A stretch of DNA of 64,000 nucleotides from the NCBI GenBank assembly GCA_963723305.1, contig CAVRRT010000124.1, forward strand, positions 2,857 to 66,856, in the 5' to 3' direction. Source of the stretch: an uncultured Pseudomonadota bacterium (GTDB lineage Bacteria > Myxococcota_A > Polyangia > Fen-1088). Positions 28,270-54,043 of the stretch are shown here, piece after piece (position 1 is the stretch's first letter; every line of letters begins with the position of its first letter). The position numbers were made by a program, and so were the translations under genes. Below the pieces are notes generated by a model, which saw nothing but the letters and a program-made list of their open reading frames with translations, searched no databases and was not told where the DNA came from.

Positions 28270-29687
28270 TTATTCCTCGCGCCAGTATTGCAGGACGCCG
28301 GCTGCCTTCTCCGCCTGCGGGGTCAGCGTGAGCGGGTTCTCCAGGGTGCGCCCGGTGTCGACGATGGCGGTGATCTTCTTCTTCACCCGCCCGGCCTCGC
28401 CGTTGGCGACGACCCGGTAGACGCGCGGCGAGCCGACGTAGGCGACGCTCCCCAGCGCGCCCGCGTCGATGGTGATCGGCTTCATCCCCTGGAACATTCG
28501 GTAGCGCGGGTCGTCGGGGAGCACCGCCGTCTGCGGGCTGGCCAAGAGGCTGGTGATGGTGCCCAGATTGTCGAACCCCGCGGTCGAGGCCCGATCGCAG
28601 AGGATGCTGGCCAGCGGGTAGAGGATGGCGTCGTTGAACACCGTCGGATCGGCCGGGGCTTGGTGGGATCGGGCGTGGCGGCGGCGCGGATGACGGCCAT
28701 GACCAGCGGCGTGCAGTCGCCGCTCTCCTTGTTGCTGATGGCGCCCAGGTTCACCTTGCAGTTCGGATCCGAGGCGTAGACCGTGAGGTAGGGCTGGAAC
28801 GCCTCCATGAATCCGTCGGAGACGCCGCGCACCATCTTCACCTCTTCGATGCTGTCGTAGCTGTTGTTGTGCGCCCGATAGTGGTCGGCGTGGGCGTCGT
28901 AGCGGTAGTCCTCCGAGTTGGAGGATCCTGCTTCGGGCGAGAACATCTGCTCGTCGGCGTCGGCCCAATCGATGATGGCCCGCGCGACGTCACTGCGGAC
29001 CGCGAAGTTGCCGGTGCTGTCTTCCTCCGAGAACAGCTTGTCGAAACGGCGCGAGTACATGAGGCCCATGAGAAGCCGGTAGACGACCAGCTGCTTGCCG
29101 TGATCGGACGCCAGGCCCGAGCCGCAGTTGATGTCGATCTTGCCGTCCTCGGCGGTGATCTCCGCGTCGAAGGTGCCCGACTTGAGCCCCAGCCCCTTGA
29201 TGTTGGCGGTGTCGATGCCGATGAGGCCGCCCAGGCCAGCCACCTCGTCCTTCGAACCGCTGAAGAAGCCCATCAGCGAGCCGGCGTAATCGGTCACCCG
29301 CAGGGAGAAGCCCAGGCTGGGCGGGGTGCTCGAGCCGCCGCTGCCACCCGTGCCGCTCGAGCTCGACGACATCGTCGACTGCAGCATCTTCGTCACCTGG
29401 CTCATCACTGGGTCGATGAACTGCTGCTGAATCTTGATCAGCAGGCGCGACAGGCTCACCGCCGAGCGCGCCAGGTAGTGCGCGCGCAGCTCGTCGCGCG
29501 CGTTGGCCGCCTGGGCGGCGTCGACGCTGGTGCCGTAGGTGAACTCGCCGATGATGGAGATCATCAACGCCAACCAGGTCAGCACGATGAGCATCGCCAC
29601 CCCGCGCTGATTGCGCGTGATCGGATGTTTCGCCCGCAAGCGCTTGCGCGCCGCCACCCACCGCCGAAACCGCGGGAAGACCTTCAT
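28270..29687 (-). pseudogene. gspK: T2SS minor pseudopilin GspK, split by a 1-nt frameshift (pseudogene or assembly error)
   Basis: The N-part (ORF 28482..29687) is protein-like up to ...VMAVIRAAATPDPTKP. The C-part (ADPTVFNDAILYPLAS...VLQYWREE) lies in the frame of ORF 28270..28968. The junction is at the G4 run 28655-28658. GspK-type N-terminus QRGVAMLIVLTWLALMISI. Confidence 0.65.
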
Positions 29688-30388
29688 TGCTTCACCGGCT
29701 TGTAGTCGACCTTCTCGGTCATCTGGATGCGCGCGTCGGTGGAGTAGGAGATCTCCTGGCCGCGCTCATCGACCACGCTGAGGGTGATGCGGACGTGGGT
29801 CGGCAGATACTGGTTCCCGCTCGCGTTGAGCGTGCTCCACTCGTTTTCCCACTCCTTCAGCTTCTGGTCGTAGTACTGGAACTTGAGCCGGCTCACGTCG
29901 GGGCAGAGGATGTAGGACTCGCCGGCGATGGCGCTGGGGTTCTCCGCCTGAAGGCGGTGCGTCTCGCGCCGCATGAGGTTGAGGACGCGCCGATCGTCGG
30001 GATCGCGCTCCCCAAAGTAGGAGATGAGCGAGGTGTCCCCCTCGGCCAGACCGGCGCGCAGCCGCTGGTGGGCGAAGCTGGAGAACTGCAGCTCGTCGAC
30101 GTCTCCGTGCGACGAGCCGATCATGAACGTCCGCCGCTCGGCGATGGCGGTGTTCTCCGAGGCCGAGAGGTAGGCCATCTCGATCTCGCGCGTCATCCGC
30201 ATGAGCGCGACCCGGACGCTGTGCGTCCGCTCCTGCGCCGACTCGATGGCGCGCTTGTTGGCGACCGTCTGGCTGAACGACCCCCACATGATGGTCGTGA
30301 CGAAGCCCAGGATGGCCAGCGCCAGCATCACCTCGATGAGCGTGAAGCCCGCCCGGCGCGCGCGACGGTCGAAACGGCGCCGCCTCAC
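29684..30388 (-). CDS. gspJ: T2SS minor pseudopilin GspJ
   Basis: Prepilin-type N-terminus AGFTLIEVMLALAILGF. Operon position fits. 4-bp overlaps with both neighbours. Confidence 0.7.
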   Translation of the reverse strand: MRRRRFDRRARRAGFTLIEVMLALAILGFVTTIMWGSFSQTVANKRAIESAQERTHSVRVALMRMTREIEMAYLSASENTAIAERRTFMIGSSHGDVDELQFSSFAHQRLRAGLAEGDTSLISYFGERDPDDRRVLNLMRRETHRLQAENPSAIAGESYILCPDVSRLKFQYYDQKLKEWENEWSTLNASGNQYLPTHVRITLSVVDERGQEISYSTDARIQMTEKVDYKPVKQ

Positions 30389-33590: not shown

Positions 33591-35360
<1,770 letters not shown>

Positions 35361-44671: not shown

Positions 44672-44679
44672 GTCTCACG

Positions 44680-44942
44680 CCGCCCGAGATCAGCCCGCTC
44701 GCCGAGATCAGGCCACCCGAGACCACGCCGCCCGAGATCAGCCCGCCCACTCGGGATCAGGCCGCCCGCCCGAGATCAGGCCGCCCGAGATCAGGCCGCC
44801 CGAGATCAGGCCGCCCGCCCGAGATTCAGGCCGCCCGAGATCAGGCCGCTCGAGATCAGGCCGCCCGCCCGAGATCAGGCCGCCCGAGATCAGGCCGCCC
44901 GCCCGAGATCAGGCCGCCCGAGATCAGGCCGCCCGAGATCAG
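44680..44942. repeat. Tandem array of ~16 units of a 15-bp repeat GCCGCCCGAGATCAG, with 19-bp variants GCCGCCCGCCCGAGATCAG
   Basis: Units read directly from sequence. In the 3' half the units form a 19+15+15 (49-bp) higher-order pattern. 14 units carry GATC. The 15/19 mix breaks any single reading frame. Confidence 0.9.
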
Positions 44943-44986
44943 GCCGCCCACCCGCGCAGCGAGGCCGAGGCTCGTAGTCGAGCGCG

Positions 44987-45136: not shown

Positions 45137-46573
45137 CTAAGCGGTGGTGGGGATAGCGGTGAGGGCGCCGGCGACGGTCTTGCCGCCGGACGAGGCGATC
45201 CAGTCGGGCATCTGGACGCTGTCGGGAATGCCGAGGCCCGAGCCGAGCGTCTTGGCCGCCGCGACCATCGTCTGCGCGGCCGGGATGTCGCCGCCGCTCT
45301 GCGCGGCGCCGCTCGTCGAGTTGATGTCGCTCGCCGCGTAGCCGCCGTCGTTGCTCGAGTCGGCGGTCACTCCGCCGATCACCGCCGACTTGAAGTTCTT
45401 GCCCACCATCACCGAGACGTTGTGATTGCCCCAGTGGTCTCGCCCCGTCCGCGACGTCACCTTGGAGATCCCGGCCAGGTTGCGCCCGAACACGTTCCAG
45501 AAGGCGAAGGTCACCTGATCGAGCAGCCCCAGGCTGGCCAGCACGCCGTTCGTCGTGTCGGTCATGAGCAGCTTGTTCATCGCGGTGACCCCGCTGACGT
45601 GCTGATCCGACTCCGCCTGCAGGTTGCTGTCGGAGTGGTTGTCGCCGCCCATCGAGATGTGGACCGTCACCACCGGGGTCACCTTGGCCGCGATGAGCGC
45701 GCCGGCCGCCCAGAGCTGGCCGTTGACGTCGTTGGCGGTGATGTTCCCCAGCGTCGTCGCCAGCTGGTCCGCCAGCGAGCGCAGCTGCGTCTGCGAGGTC
45801 GACAGCGCGTCGAGAAACTGCGCCTGCACGCTCCCCGCCGGGTACTCGCTCTTGATGAGCGCGTTCATGCTGTCGAGATCCGTGTCCCGCTGCGCCTGCA
45901 TCGTCACCAGCGGATCGGTCTTCGTCCCCGTCAACAACTGCTTGAGCTGCATCGGCGTGATCGACGGCAGCGTGCGCCCGGAGAAGCTCACCAGCTCCCC
46001 CGCGTTCCCGCCCGCCCCCACCGCGATCGGCGCCGACTGCACCGTGCCGAAGCAGGTCGACAGGTGCTTGGCGAACGCGGAGACCATCATCTCCCCGCCC
46101 GACGTCGCCCCCAATACCTTCATCACCTTCGGCTGATCGCCGTGCACGACCGTGCCGGTCATGTAGTGGAAGAACGACGTCCGCGCCAGCACCGCCGAGC
46201 TGAGGCACCCCGCGCTGCCGCCCGTCGTCGTCACCGACGGATCGGCCCAGGGCAGCGCCGCGCCCAGCATCTGCCCCCCGACCGACACCTTCTGAGCTGT
46301 CATCTCGTCGACCGTCGGATGAACCAGGTTGGTGTTCTCGTACGTCCCCGGACAGTTGCAGTTGACCGGGTCGCCGTTGCTCGACGTGCTCAGGATCAGA
46401 TACTGGTTGTTGTTCTTCGCGTTCAGCATGCACTGCAGATCCTGCGCTGTCGCCCGGCGCGGGTTCAGCAGAAACCAGGGGGGAAGCCCGGTCGCCAGCG
46501 CGCGCAGGCCGATGTAGCCGCTGCCGAACAGCCCGGCGAGGAGACTTTCCCGTCGTGTAACTGGCTTAATCAT
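45137..46573 (-). CDS. DUF1552/DUF1501-type protein (Tat-like N-terminus, GRDHW motif)
   Basis: 478 aa. N-terminus MIKPVTRRESLLAGLFGSG. GRDHWGNHN near the C-terminus. AAGGAG RBS. Sits directly after the DUF1588/1592-like gene, a pairing I recognise from Planctomycetes and Myxobacteria. Confidence 0.6.
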   Translation of the reverse strand: MIKPVTRRESLLAGLFGSGYIGLRALATGLPPWFLLNPRRATAQDLQCMLNAKNNNQYLILSTSSNGDPVNCNCPGTYENTNLVHPTVDEMTAQKVSVGGQMLGAALPWADPSVTTTGGSAGCLSSAVLARTSFFHYMTGTVVHGDQPKVMKVLGATSGGEMMVSAFAKHLSTCFGTVQSAPIAVGAGGNAGELVSFSGRTLPSITPMQLKQLLTGTKTDPLVTMQAQRDTDLDSMNALIKSEYPAGSVQAQFLDALSTSQTQLRSLADQLATTLGNITANDVNGQLWAAGALIAAKVTPVVTVHISMGGDNHSDSNLQAESDQHVSGVTAMNKLLMTDTTNGVLASLGLLDQVTFAFWNVFGRNLAGISKVTSRTGRDHWGNHNVSVMVGKNFKSAVIGGVTADSSNDGGYAASDINSTSGAAQSGGDIPAAQTMVAAAKTLGSGLGIPDSVQMPDWIASSGGKTVAGALTAIPTTA

Positions 46574-46588
46574 GGGGCAGCTCTCCTT

Positions 46589-48994
46589 TTACAGACCGAT
46601 TCCGAGTGAGGTGGGGGACTCGCAGGCCAAAACAAAGGTCGAACGCACCGAGTTCGTCTGGGCCGAGGTGCTGCCGGTGGTGGTACCGCCGGTGAAGCCC
46701 CGCCGGTCGTGGTGGTCTTCACCTTGGCGGCGGCGGCGCAGTGGTTCTCGAGGATGGTGAGGGCCGGGTCGTGGAGCGGATCGCTGGGATTGATCCCCAT
46801 GACCTGCTCGACGAACTTCGTCAGAGGAGCCCGTCGGTGTTGGCGCAGGTGGTGCTGCTGCTGGTGTACGGCCCGCCGGTCACGTCGACGACCAGCTTGG
46901 CGACGTTCTCGCAAAGCTCCTCGGTCGCCGCGCGGTAGAAGAGGTCCGGGATAGGCCGGCGTGACCGGGGTCTGCGATCCGCGGCTGAACGCGTCGGCCG
47001 CCACGCTGCCGGCGATGGTCAGCGTGGTGCGTCTGCGCCGAAGTCGGCACCGCCGCCTGCAACGCGCACACGTCGGAGATCCCCATCCGATTGGAGAGCG
47101 CCGCGCAGAGATGAGCCTGCCGCGAGATGCTGATGGGAACCGTCTCGTTTCCGCTGGAGTCGGCCGGGTAAGTCGTGGTGGCCGCCGCGCCCGTCACGAG
47201 CGCCGAAGAGAAGAGCTCCTTCACCAGCGCCGGGAAGTTGTAGTTGCTGCTCACGAAGTCGGCCACGATGCCGCGGAAGACCGGATCGCTCTGCGAGCAG
47301 GCGTTCGAGTTGGCCCAGAAGCAGAGCTGCTGGGCGACCGAGACCGCGAACAGCGGCAGCGGTCCGCCGGCGTCGGTGGTGTCTTGATCGGTCGCCTGCA
47401 GGAGGAGCGGCCCGAGGTCGGTCATGCTCGGTCCCGGTCGAGGGGCTCGCCCAGTTGACGTCGGCAAAAGCGAACGCCGCCGCCAGCGGCGCCGCCGGCC
47501 GCGGGTTCGGCTGCGAGCCGCTGAACGGGTTCGCCACGAAGTCGTTGCGATCGTTGAAGTCATACTGATTGCCGAAGAACATGCGCATCGGGTCGAGGCT
47601 CTTGTGGCAGCCGTAGCACTCGCCCGATGGTCGTCGTGTGCGCGGAGGCGAGACCGACCTCGCTGAGCGGGGTGAGGTTGTTGTCGCTGGTGAACGACTG
47701 CCCGAGCGACGCCAGCAGCGTCTGGTTCATCGTCACGCGGTGCTGGTTGCTGTCGTTCGTGTTCCAGAGGGCGAGAAAAGCCGGCGTCGTGTAGAAGCCG
47801 ACCCGCGGCATCGCCAGCTTGACCGTGCTCGCCGTCCGCAGCGTGGGGAGGTCGTAGGGCTGGACGTACGCGTCGCCGCTCTGCTTCGGGGCGATGGTCA
47901 CCCACCGCCAGTCGGAGACGTCGTTGTCGGTCATGTAGGGCTTCGAGGGGTGCTCCCAGCAGTCGGGGCTGGCGGCGAACGGATAGCGCGGCGTGTAGCC
48001 GATGAGACGCTGGAAGAGCTGCGCGTAGCCGCCGGTGGGCGTCGCGAAGCCGGTGCTGGTCCCGCCGAACTGGACCACCGTCTTGGTCGTCCCGCTGGCC
48101 GCGTCGCCGACCCCTTGGCAGGTGGTGAATCCACCGGTGCCGCCGAAGAGGAACGAGCTCCCCATCGTCGCCGGCTTCTCGTCGTCGAAGGTCATGTAGT
48201 TGGCGCTGCTCGGGTTGAGGGCGTCGTCGAGCGCGATGGTGTCGACGTAGTCGAGCTTCCATCGACAGCTTGGCGGTGGTGTTGGCGCCGCCGCTGAAGT
48301 TGTAGGGCTCGTCGTCCGGCATCTCGATCTGCGTGTAGAGGCTCATGAGCCCGGTGGTCATCATGAACCGCTGCGTGGTGAGGACGTCGGAGAAGGGTTC
48401 GGTCCCCTCCTTCACCATCTGCCAAGCGGTCAGCGCGAAGCTGTCCTGAAGGTTCTGAACCAGCTTGAAGTAGACGTCGTCGCCCACGGCGCTGGTCCCG
48501 AACGGACCGAAGTCGAACCCGCCGTTCTCCAGCAGCTGCGGCTTGAAGTCCTGCGTGGGGGTAAATCCGACCTGCTGGAACAGGTTGCGGAAGAACGGGA
48601 TCATCTTCCCCTGGAACTGCGGCTGGAAGGTGGCGCTCGACTCCCAGGTGATGATGAGCTGCTGCAAGCCCGCCGGGCCCATCGACTGAACCGTGGCGAC
48701 CTCGTCGTCGGTGCAGGGCATTCCGACCAACAGGTCCTTGATCTTGCGACAGGTGGGCGCCGCCAGCGCGGGCGTGAAGGTCGTCGGCATGACGGTCACG
48801 CCGCCCGCGTCGACATTGCTCCCGCCGCCGCCGGTCGGGGTGCCGCCGCCAGACCCAGTGGAACCGCCAGAGCCGCTCGAGGAGCCACCAGAGCCGCTCG
48901 GCGAGCCGGCCCCGATATTTCCCTTGCAGCCGTAACCCAGGGAGGCAACGAGCAAAAGTGCCAGGCTCATTCGCCGGAATTCGTTCGTCAACAT
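46589..48994 (-). pseudogene. DUF1585/1588/1592-type lipoprotein gene carrying at least 7 single-nt indels
   Basis: Protein-like sequence jumps between frames. ORF 46880..48994 covers the N-part (lipobox LGYGC) and a later block (MTDLGPLLLQATDQ...). ORF 47560..48195 covers KLDYVDTIALDD...SEVGLASAHTTT. ORF 47019..47588 covers GECYGCHKSLDPMRMFFGNQYDF. ORF 46570..47004 covers TLTIAGSVAADAF and TKFVEQVMGINPSDPLHDP. An unlisted frame covers PDLFYRAATEELCENVAKLVVDV. The final block NSVRSTFVLACESPTSLGIGL ends at the TAA stop 46589-46591. Confidence 0.65.
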
Positions 48995-49248: not shown

Positions 49249-49932
49249 GTGCGTTCGAAACGCGCTTTTCATCGAGATATCTCTAAACTCGCGCCCATGA
49301 TGACGATGACGATTCTGTGCGCGGCGACGTTGATCGCGGCGGATGCGGCGCCGGCCGGCCGACTCTCGCCCGACGTGTCGAAGGAAATGATGGCGGCAAT
49401 CGTCGCGACAAATAAGGCCCTCGGCCTCGAGAGTTGGCCGATGCATGACGTCAAACCCTGCATCGATCGCGGCGGTCAGGGGATCACCGCCAAAGAGGTG
49501 ACTCCGGACGAATCGCGCAAGTGCGCCGCGTCCGCAATCGAAAAGGGATTCCCGGAGCTCGGCAAGTCGTACGTGCTGGCCATCCCGATGGCGGAGATCG
49601 GCCCGGTCACCGTCCTGGCGATCGGGATCGGCGCCAACGAAGGCTGGGGGGCTTACTCCTGCGATCCCGACCGCAAGTGCCTGCCGGTGAAGATCGGAGG
49701 TGCCAACAAGTGGGGCAAGCGGATCGCCGATCGATTGGCCCGCGCTTGCGGTGAGACGACGACGCTCTGGTTCCCCATCGACAAGCGCGCCTGTGCGGGG
49801 ACTGCGCCCGCGGCGGCCACCGCGCCCCCGCCCGCGGCGGCCACCGCGCCCGCGCTGACCGCGCCCGCGCCCGCGCTGACCGCGCCCGCGCCCGCGCCCG
49901 CGCCGACCGCGCCGCCGCCCGCCAAGCACTGA
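49249..49932 (+). CDS. Hypothetical secreted Cys-containing protein with Ala/Pro-repeat tail
   Basis: 227-aa track ORF. Likely signal from the internal MMTMTILCAATLIAADA (49297). Body is protein-like. C-terminus is APAAATAPPPAAATAPALTAPAPALTAPAPAPAPTAPPPAKH. Confidence 0.45.
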   Translation: MRSKRAFHRDISKLAPMMTMTILCAATLIAADAAPAGRLSPDVSKEMMAAIVATNKALGLESWPMHDVKPCIDRGGQGITAKEVTPDESRKCAASAIEKGFPELGKSYVLAIPMAEIGPVTVLAIGIGANEGWGAYSCDPDRKCLPVKIGGANKWGKRIADRLARACGETTTLWFPIDKRACAGTAPAAATAPPPAAATAPALTAPAPALTAPAPAPAPTAPPPAKH

Positions 49933-49950
49933 CCGCCCTGCAAGAGCACG

Positions 49951-50025
49951 TCTGTTCTGGCGCGTCTGTCTGGCGCGTCTGTCTGGCGCGTCTGTCTGGC
50001 GCGTCTGTCTGGCGCGTCTGTCTGG
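49951..50025. repeat. 13-bp tandem repeat TCTGTCTGGCGCG, about 6 copies
   Basis: tctgttctggcgcg followed by four exact tctgtctggcgcg units and a partial tctgtctgg. It starts 19 nt after the stop of the 49249..49932 gene. Confidence 0.9.
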
Positions 50026-50128: not shown

Positions 50129-53100
50129 TCACCCGACGAAGAGCCGCGCGTTGCGGAAGAGGCGCATCCAGGGACCGTCCTCGCGCCAGCCGGCGGGGTG
50201 CCAAGAATGTTGGACGGCGCGAAAGACCCGCTCGGGATGCGGCATGAACAACGTGACGCGGCCGTCGATGGTGGTGACGCCGGTGATGCCGTGGAACGAC
50301 CCGTTGGGATTCTCCGGGTAGCGCTCGGTGGCGCGGCCCCGGTGATCGACGAAGCGCGCCGCCACCAGACCGGCGGCCTCGATCTCTGGACCGCCGGCGT
50401 CCGTCGGAAACTCCGCTTGCCCCTCGCCGTGCGCGACGACGATCGGGAGCCGCGAGCCCACCATCCCGCGAAGCAGGACCGACGGCGTCTCGGCGATCTC
50501 GACCATCGACAGGCGCGCTTCGAACTGATCGCTGCGGTTGCGGACGAAGCGGGGCCAGGCCCCGGCGCCGGGGATGATCTCCTTGAGGGCGGAGAGCATC
50601 TGGCAACCGTTGCAGACGCCCAGCGCAAAGCTGTCGGGGCGGGCGAAGAAGCCGGCCAGGAGATCCCGGGCGCGCGGTTGAAAGAGGATCGACTTTGCCC
50701 ACCCGAGGCCCGCGCCCAGCACGTCGCCGTAGGAGAACCCGCCGCAGGCGGCCAGCCCCTTGAAGTCGGTGAGATCGACGGCGCCCGACAGCAGATCGGT
50801 CATGTGGACGTCGACGGCGTCGAACCCGGCGCGGTCGAAGGCGGCCGCCATCTCGATCTGGCCGTTGACCCCCTGCTCGCGCAGGATCGCCACGCGCGGG
50901 CGAGCGCCGCCACGGGCGCGCAGCGGCGCCGTGAGGTCGTCGTTCAGATCGAAGGTCAGGTGCGCGGACAGGCCGGGATCGTCGGCGCGGACCCGGCCGG
51001 CCTGCTCCTCGTCGGCCGAGGTCGGATCGTCGCGCAGCGCCTGGATGGCGTGCGTCGTCTCTGACCAGAGGCCGCGCAGGAAGGTGCGGCGCTCCTCGAA
51101 GATCGGCTTGCCCGCCAGACGGAAGATCAGGCGATCGTCGGCGCGCGGGGCGCCCAGCCGGCGGACGGCCGGCGCCGAGATGCCATGTCGACCGAGCGTC
51201 GCCACCACGCGCGGAAGATCGGCGCCGCGCACGGCGATCACCGCGCCAAGCTCTTCGGCGAACAGGGTGGCGATCGGATCGGGCCCCAGGAAGGTCAGAT
51301 CGACGTCGAGCCCCACGCCGCTGGCGAACGCGATCTCGAGCAGCGTCACCAAGAGGCCGCCGTCGCTGCGATCGTGATAGGCGGCGACGAGGCCGGCGCT
51401 GTTGAGCTCCTGCACCGCCCCGAAGAACCGCGCCAGAAGCGCGGGATCGTCGAGATCGGGCGGCGTCGCGCCGAGCGCGCCGTAGACCTGCCCGAGGGCC
51501 GAGCCGCCGAGGCGATTTTTCCCCTGGCCGAGATCGATGAGGAGCAGCTCCGTCGGTCCGGTCTCCGGCGCGATGGCCGGCGTGAGCACGCGCCGCACGT
51601 CGGTGACCGGCGCGAAGGCGGTGACCACCAGCGAGAGCGGCGCGGTGACGCTGAGCGCGCTGTCGCCCGCCTGCCAGCTGGTGCGCATCGACAGCGAGTC
51701 CTTGCCGACCGGGATGGCGATGCCCAGCGCCGGGCAGAGCTCGCTCCCCACGGCGCGGACCGCGTCGTAGAGGCGGGCGTCCTCGCCGGGATGGCCGGCG
51801 GCGGCCATCCAGTTGGCCGACAGCTTGACGTCGCCGAGGCGCGCGATCGGCGTGGCGGCGATGTTGGTGATCGCCTCGGCGACCGCCAGACGGGCGGATG
51901 CGGCGGCGTCCAGCAACGCCACCGGCGCCCGCTCACCCATCGCCATCGCCTCGCCGGTCGTCACGTCGAAGCCGGTCGTCGTCACCGCGGCGTCGGCGAC
52001 CGGCACCTGCCAGCGCCCGACCATCTGATCGCGGGCCGTCAAGCCACCGACGGTGCGATCGCCGATGGTGATGAGGAACGTCTTGTCGGCGACGGTCGGC
52101 AGCCGCAGCACGCGGCGTACCGCCTCCCCCAGATCGATCCCGGCGGTTGCGAACGGCGCGGGCTTGGGCGCGAGACGCGTCGCCTGGCGCGTCGACCGGG
52201 GCGGCTTGCCGAGCAACACCCCGAGCGGCATGTCGACGGGGTCAGCATCGGGACGTCCGGCGGCGAGCGCATCCTCGACGACCAGCCGGCCGTCGTCGGT
52301 GGCGCGGCCGATGACCGCGTGCGGGCAGCGCTCCCGCGCGCAGAGCGCGGCGAACGCCGGCAGCCGGTCGGCGGAGATCGCCAGCACGTAGCGCTCCTGC
52401 GCCTCGTTGCACCAGATCTCCAGCGGCGAGAGCCCGGGCTCGGCGCTGGGGATGTCGCGCAGCGCGAACCGCGCGCCGCGGCCGCTGTCATGCACGAGCT
52501 CAGGGAGCGCGTTGGAGAGCCCGCCCGCGCCCACGTCGTGAATCGACAGGATCGGGTTGGCGGCACCCTGCGCCGCGCAGCGATCGATCACCTCCTGACA
52601 GCGCCGCTGCATCTCGGCGTTGTCCCGCTGCACCGACGCGAAGTCGAGATCCTCGCTCGACGCGCCCGAGGCCAGCGACGACGCCGCGCCGCCGCCCAGG
52701 CCGATCAGCATGGCCGGCCCCCCCAGCACGACGATCGGTGTCCCCGCCGGGATCTCGGCCTTCTTGACCTGCTCGGCGCGCACGTTGCCGAAGCCGCCCG
52801 CCACCATGATCGGCTTGTGGTAGCCGCGCACCTCGCGGCCTGAAGGGCCCTCGATCTCCAGCTCGAAGGTGCGAAAGTATCCGGCCAGGCCGGGGCGGCC
52901 GAACTCGTTGTTGAAGGCGGCGCCCCCGATCGGCCCCTCGAGCATGATGTCGAGCGCGCTGGCGATCCGCTCGGGCTTGGCGGCCGGCCGCTCCCAGGGG
53001 CGGGGCGCGCTCGGCAGGCGAAGGTTGGAGACGGAGAAACCACTCAGCCCCGCCTTCGGGCGCGCCCCGCGGCCGGTCGCCCCCTCGTCGCGGATCTCGC

Positions 53101-54043
53101 CGCCCGAGCCGGTCGCCGCCCCCGCGAACGGCGAGATGGCGGTGGGGTGATTGTGCGTCTCGACCTTCATCAAGATGTGCACCGGCTCGACGTGCGTGCG
53201 GTAGATGCCGCTCGCGGGATCGGGCGCCAACCGCCCAGCCTCCACCCCGGCGATCACCGCGGCGTTGTCGTGGTAGGCCGAAAGCACGCCGCCCGGGCTG
53301 GCCTCGGTGCTGCGCCGGATCATCTGGAAAAGCGTCTGCGGCTGGCGCTGGCCGTCGATCACGAAGTCGGCGTTGAAGATCTTGTGGCGGCAGTGCTCGC
53401 TGTTGGCCTGCGCGAACATCATCAGCTCGACGTCGGTCGGATCGCGGCCGAGCGTGGCGTAGGCGTCGACGAGGTAGTCGATCTCGTCGGGCGAGAGCGC
53501 CAGTCCCAGCGCATGGTTCGCCTTCGCCAGCGCGGCGCGCCCGTCACGGCCGAGCGCCACGCGCCCGAGGGGGCGCGGCGCCGGACGCTCGAACAGGCGC
53601 GGTGCCTCGCTGGGACGATCGAGCACCGACTCGGTCATCCGATCGGCCAGCGCCCGCACGAATCCGGCCTCGTCGACGATCTCGCCGACGACGACGTAGC
53701 TGACGGCGCGCTCGATCCGCCGCACCTTGCTGAGACCGCAGACGTGAGCGATGTCGGTCGCCTTCGACGACCAGGGGGAGATCGTTCCCAGGCGCGGAAC
53801 GACCATCAGCCGCCGGCCCGAGGCCACGGTGGCGCGCCCGGCACCGTCCGGCGGGCGCGGCCCGTAGGTCAAAAGCTCGTGCAGGATGCGCGACTCCTCC
53901 TCGGTCAGCGTCCCGTCGACGTCAGCGAAGTGCAGGTAGGTGCCGTTGAGAGCGCGCGCGCCAGGGTTGGTGCGGCGAATGGCCGAGAGCCGCTTCTGCA
54001 AGCGCCCTGCGCCGAGCGCGCTCCCGCCGACGACGTCAATCAT
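50129..54043 (-). CDS. purL: Phosphoribosylformylglycinamidine synthase (single-chain large PurL)
   Basis: 1304 aa, colinear with large Pur[35 protein letters not shown]-terminal glutaminase GVCNGCQM...HGEG. Confidence 0.9.

Follow-up and report, generated by a model that had tools for sequence, protein, structure and literature searches.

The locus described here lies in a 64,000-nt stretch of DNA (the window) from the assembly of an uncultured Polyangia bacterium. Three-frame translation of the minus strand revealed a protein of ~800 codons that can be read continuously only by changing frame seven times; the frame path across the gene is 1>2>0>1>2>0>2>1, with frame 1 at both ends. The coordinates of this gene, of its downstream partner, and of the individual frame changes are collected in Table 1. 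The amino terminus carries a probable lipoprotein signal, a reading based on the invariance of Cys23. The read-through protein passes through the sequence ECYGCHKSLDP and ends in STFVLACESPTSLGIGL, followed by a TAA stop codon that abuts the ribosome-binding site of the partner gene, whose ATG is at position 46573.

TABLE 1 Features of the frame-broken locus, its seven indel events, and two further broken genes in the window
Feature	Position	Strand	Basis or remark
Broken gene, ~800-aa predicted exported protein of a Polyangia family without annotation	46589..48994	-	Three-frame translation, orthologs, frame tracker
N-terminal signal MLTNEFRRMSLALLLVASLGYGC (probable lipoprotein signal)	48926..48994	-	Cys23 invariant in 44 sequences
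CYGCH, predicted CxxCH heme-c-type motif	47604..47618	-	Invariant across family
TAA stop (46591-46589), then directly AAGGAG (46588-46583)	46583..46591	-	AAGGAG 9 nt before partner ATG
Intact partner gene, 478 aa, twin-arginine-type N-terminus (TRRESLL)	45137..46573	-	Weak DUF1501-like match
Event 1, +1 base (CTG TCG A TGG; relatives L-S/Q-W)	48265 (48262..48265)	-	No homopolymer extended
Event 2, +1 A (ACC A TCG)	47628	-	No homopolymer extended
Event 3, +1 base (ACC G AGC versus P0002)	47431..47436	-	Placement ambiguous within 6 nt
Event 4, +1 C (ACG C ACC)	47029	-	Ortholog DNA alignment
Event 5, +1 G (CCC G GAC)	46947	-	Ortholog DNA alignment
Event 6, +2 bases (GGG CTC CT[CT] G ACG)	46829..46830	-	Ortholog alignment and P0002
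Event 7, +2 bases in a Gly/Thr-rich stretch of variable length	46695..46696	-	Alignment; nature least certain
Broken gene, type II secretion operon	33600-35360	-	1-nt deletion at 34222; 1-nt non-homopolymer T insertion at 34789
Broken gene, type II secretion operon	28273-29840	-	1-nt deletion in G-run at 28653

The initial annotation had described a single protein running through seven frame changes, and translation, frame tracking, and ortholog alignment bear this out, coordinates included. The export signal, the CxxCH motif, the conserved C terminus, and the TAA preceding AAGGAG-ATG were all recovered from the sequence. The gene does start and end in the same frame, as had been proposed, because the extra bases total 9 (a net gain of 0 modulo 3). 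The partner, likewise described as uninterrupted and cotranscribed, aligns in one frame to its orthologs from the same-genus assemblies G017, G015, and G006; it lies directly downstream, is intact, and appears to be translationally coupled.

Two repeats lie near the gene pair. Positions 44675-44949, in the gap that directly follows the partner, contain ~17 imperfect tandem copies of the 15-nt unit TCAGGCCGCCCGAGA (77% matches), an array that gives rise to long spurious Arg/Pro-rich open reading frames (ORFs) in several frames. On the other side, positions 49949-50025 contain 5.8 nearly perfect tandem copies of the 13-nt unit CGTCTGTCTGGCG (98% matches), flanked by a small ORF (49249-49932) and by the end of a purL-like gene (50129-54043).

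Orthologs of the broken gene are intact

When 30 relatives were searched with the read-through protein, many same-genus genomes proved to contain single, stop-free frames of ~770-830 aa, 72-87% identical in amino acid sequence over residues 1-802, so that the intact copy in sister genomes proposed as a check by the initial annotation was found. The public protein collection holds ~590 homologs, mostly from metagenome-assembled genomes labeled "Polyangia bacterium." The closest are P0002 (92% identity; 740 aa, cut at its end), which is uninterrupted over the first six event sites, and P0001 (89%); no same-species intact copy (≥97% identical) was found in that collection. P0002 has Trp at two otherwise invariant N-terminal cysteines (APTWRKIK and GMPWTDDE), with TGC>TGG at both, which could be real variation or an error in that record.

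Within the genome itself (G000), a search with the target-family profile returned only the target locus and a truncated, frame-broken paralog on contig C68. The latter (G000:C68:1-1121) runs into the contig end and shifts frame near C68:561-576; over residues 105-297, its amino acid identity to the target is 86%.

Family identity and the partner gene

The broken gene had been labeled DUF1588/1592-like, but this label failed every hidden Markov model (HMM) test. An hmmscan of the intact orthologs P0001, P0005, and P0012 against Pfam and NCBIfam returned 0 families at E ≤ 1, and Pfam and NCBIfam scans of the fragments of the broken gene yielded nothing. Genome scans with PF07631 (DUF1592, PSD4) and PF07627 (DUF1588, PSCyt3) at E ≤ 10 did not match the target locus; these models match five other loci in the genome (C143, C160, C186, C145, and C35). 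A weak tblastn match of the N terminus to a true DUF1592 protein on C160 (E = 4e-5) was discarded because the profile search did not reproduce it. A profile search of the Protein Data Bank (PDB) gave a single weak match, to the phycobilisome linker CpcN (E = 5.4e-07, 31.4 bits), which was taken as spurious, as no stretch passes alone. The AlphaFold2 model of P0001 was mediocre (pLDDT 63), with values below 50 over residues 398-516, the region of the CxxCH motif, and a Foldseek search of this model against the PDB gave no match at E < 4.

The CYGCH motif of the family is invariant in 44 homologs (alignment A2) and in 67 homologs (alignment A3) and is adjoined by KSLDP; its two cysteines and its histidine, C459, C462, and H463 in A2, do not vary in either alignment. 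A conserved CxxCH in a predicted exported protein is consistent with a c-type cytochrome-like protein.

The partner gene had been assigned to a DUF1552/1501 type. Its match to DUF1501 (PF07394) covers profile positions 178-339 of 390 and scores 25.1 bits (E = 1.2e-5), below the cutoff of 27. For DUF1552 no match was seen, nor did NCBIfam yield one for the partner. The arrangement of a single-CxxCH exported protein followed by a Tat-signal protein recalls the planctomycete-type pairs of PSCyt/PSD proteins (DUF1549/1553, DUF1585-1595) with DUF1501/DUF1552 proteins. It differs from them in that the large protein matches no PSCyt/PSD model even at E ≤ 1 to 10, the partner remains below the Pfam DUF1501 cutoff, and the PDB yielded no structural match. 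Our working guess is that the two genes may encode a periplasmic or outer-leaflet heme-binding protein that would act with a sulfatase-fold partner.

Seven insertions underlie the frame changes

We placed the individual events by aligning the DNA with that of five orthologs and refined the placement with the 92%-identical protein P0002, which settles the local reading at events 1 to 3 and 6. Six of the seven frame changes were also marked by the Viterbi codon-usage tracker described below, with switches at 48258/9, 47625/6, 47426/7, 47029/30, 46952/3, and 46824/5. Relative to each ortholog compared, the window carries additional bases at every one of the seven events (+1 at five of them and +2 at two). 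The initial annotation had counted five 1-nt insertions and two deletions; the five insertions stand, and the two proposed deletions align better as 2-nt insertions, which have the same effect on the frame. Of the five +1 events, four do not lengthen a homopolymer.

The insertions at 48265 and 47628 both create the hexamer CGATGG, one on each strand, and each of the five +1 bases can be positioned precisely at a codon boundary. Given only five events, whose placement is partly ambiguous, this pattern may be a coincidence.

Frame switches are frequent and clustered across the assembly

The whole assembly (4.41 Mb in 190 contigs, 75% complete) was scanned with a Viterbi frame tracker whose training set was 1,139 long ORFs from this genome. 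An event was counted when coding sequence switched frame to coding sequence on the same strand and the upstream frame remained open for at least 45 nt past the switch. The tracker recorded 967 frame switches, or 2.2 per 10 kb, none of which was explained by a stop codon; candidate in-frame stop interruptions numbered ~10 genome-wide. Most of the switches (709; 73%) were in the "+1" direction, and 258 were "-1." The switches were also clustered, with a median spacing of 789 nt versus the ~4.5 kb expected if they were random, and 43 non-overlapping 2.5-kb clusters with at least five detected events were observed versus 0.5 expected. The target gene scores 5 by this cluster detector, and 28 clusters score 6-9. 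Seven events in 1.6 kb are far above chance for a clean genome, given the ~0.07 events per 10 kb of clean relatives, and are ordinary for this 190-contig assembly. They nevertheless stand in strong local contrast to the immediate neighbors of the gene, which contain zero events, and this contrast is a counterpoint to reading them as assembly error.

Per-gene tblastn with the ORFs of three clean relatives showed that 3 of the 11 calls in the window were gene boundaries, so that the true number of events genome-wide is roughly 700-950. This procedure replaced a raw blastn gap-phase count against G017, which was dropped as uninformative because its alignments run across several genes and indels abound in G017 too. 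The same per-gene comparison identified two further broken genes in the window, both belonging to a type II secretion operon (Table 1).

Switch clusters are found in this one syntenic operon in three independent assemblies (G000, the present one, and G017 and G001), at ~24.7-37.9 kb of the window, G017:C7 local 28.2-41.4 kb, and G001:C10 local 53.7-60.2 kb; the same region is clean in G015, G002, and G006. The sharing hints at a systematic consensus problem that would depend on sequence or population, rather than at purely random low coverage.

Break density tracks assembly type

We applied this detector to other assemblies from the genus. Four assemblies with megabase contigs (G001, G009, G010, and G017; 5-20 contigs), sampled over 60-80 kb each, yielded 87 events at 2.1-4.6 per 10 kb, of which 69 were "+1." An assembly of 50 contigs (G003) showed four events in 60 kb (0.67 per 10 kb), none of them "+1." Finally, 12 fragmented assemblies (190-1,100 contigs), whose sampled sequence included the parts of G002, G006, and G015 in synteny with the window, gave only two events in a total of ~302 kb (~0.07 per 10 kb), one of them "+1." Both the break density and the "+1" bias therefore follow assembly type, as would be expected of a consensus artifact. 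Relatedness does not reproduce this distribution: for the target gene, dS between the window and the clean assembly G018 is 0.39 and that between the window and the noisy assemblies G017 and G001 is 0.52, and G018 and G017 are mutual nearest neighbors. Since the clean G018 is closer to the window than are the noisy G017 and G001, the signal tracks assembly type and not lineage.

The corrected protein shows no relaxed constraint

A gene broken seven times could be a genuine, very recent pseudogene, with indels that are real in the population, a dead gene, and a surviving partner, and the initial annotation had implied heavy decay of this kind. The frame breaks are, after all, present in the deposited sequence, the paralog on C68 could make a broken copy dispensable, and the best match in the public collection, at 92%, leaves the same-species copy unrepresented there. 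Drift lasting long enough for seven indels should, however, also have left substitutions at conserved residues; at three substitutions per indel, we would expect ~five or six changes of invariant residues. Of the 295 alignment columns in which 43 homologs all agree, the frame-corrected protein departs from 0 (other members, from 0-8). Its dN/dS values versus five orthologs are 0.19-0.26, within the range of 0.19-0.32 seen between pairs of intact genes, and three-frame translation revealed no stop codons in the corrected frame. The test for signs of relaxed constraint (excess nonsynonymous changes, nonsense codons, and deletions) thus came out negative. Seven to nine inserted bases without accompanying substitutions are unlike neutral decay.

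The direction of the changes is also informative. Bacterial pseudogenes show a deletional bias and slippage at repeats; the events seen here are insertions, mostly off homopolymers, which is the opposite of that bias, and they therefore count in favor of an artifact. Frameshift pseudogenes of the Mycobacterium leprae type resemble the present case in having several breaks beside intact neighbors and in numbering in the hundreds per genome. The present case differs in its lack of a substitution excess and of nonsense codons, in its bias toward insertion instead of deletion, and in the recurrence of the signature in unrelated assemblies of one technical type. The same breaks occur ~970 times across this assembly and are found in the unrelated assemblies with megabase contigs and not in the fragmented ones, and even the C68 paralog fragment is frame broken. 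A recent pseudogene is thus an unlikely explanation, albeit the strongest of the alternatives that we considered.

Probable origin of the frame changes

We conclude, with a probability of about 0.85, that the seven frame changes stem from indel errors left uncorrected in the consensus, for the most part bases inserted spuriously. The errors would lie in a locally poorly supported patch of ~1.6 kb within an error-prone metagenome-assembled genome whose error signature points most probably to noisy long reads at low coverage; low local coverage might then be what causes the events to cluster, although this last step is conjecture. Frameshifts that arise from indels in metagenome contigs assembled from long reads at low coverage are a known artifact, documented in a review (PMC8021871). 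That review, and Watson & Warr 2019 as cited there, describe noisy long-read metagenome assemblies in which many genes are split by single-base indels and are otherwise undecayed, as is the case here. Further likenesses to such assemblies (PMC8021871) are that errors gather in poorly supported stretches, that their density varies with assembly type and not with lineage, and that estimated completeness is low. There are also differences: the events here are mostly non-homopolymer insertions, whereas homopolymer deletions are often described for Nanopore data, and the present assembly consists of 190 contigs, not a few. A 16S gene was sought as a hint of long reads, and no match was found in the 190-contig assembly.

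A special form of the artifact would be a chimeric consensus, in which reads from a paralog or a related strain were mixed or collapsed and the indels fell at polymorphic sites. The 86%-identical paralog on C68 offers a possible source of such reads, and the switch clusters shared by the type II secretion operons of G000, G017, and G001 would fit a recurrent problem of this kind. Second copies, however, accompany only 2 of the 43 hot clusters versus 8 of 200 control regions; with no enrichment, paralog collapse was rejected as a general cause of the clustering. We consider a chimeric consensus improbable at this locus; it would in any case be a subtype of assembly artifact and not a separate biological reading.

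Slightly less probable still is that the dense patches of mostly "+1" insertions, which number at least 43 in this genome and reappear in the type II secretion operon of three assemblies, are real mutations, arising from patchy, insertion-prone repair or replication in this Polyangia genus; if that were true, the target gene would be one of hundreds that were freshly inactivated. Functional recoding, by programmed ribosomal frameshifting or transcriptional slippage at seven sites, has next to no chance of being correct: the start and end frames agree and each segment stays protein-like, but neither slippery heptamers nor tracts of a single base were present at the seven sites, every ortholog, the 92%-identical P0002 among them, keeps one frame at the event positions and therefore no shift site is conserved (a comparison that by itself effectively refutes recoding), the yield after seven successive shifts would be negligible, and error accounts for the genome-wide pattern.

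Implications

As a consensus artifact, the finding is an ordinary one, chiefly useful as a warning. In this genome and in several highly contiguous assemblies of the same genus, consensus indels may split roughly one gene in five; frameshift-aware handling is therefore needed for gene calls, for pseudogene counts, for estimates of completeness, and for observations of "broken genes." If the frame changes are consensus errors, the gene is most likely intact in the organism, where it would encode an exported, probably lipid-anchored protein of ~800 aa with one predicted heme-binding CxxCH motif and would be cotranscribed and translationally coupled with a putatively Tat-exported, DUF1501-like protein. 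It belongs to a large Polyangia family (~590 homologs) that lacks any annotation and is of modest interest, in which the CxxCH motif is invariant and the partner is DUF1501-like.
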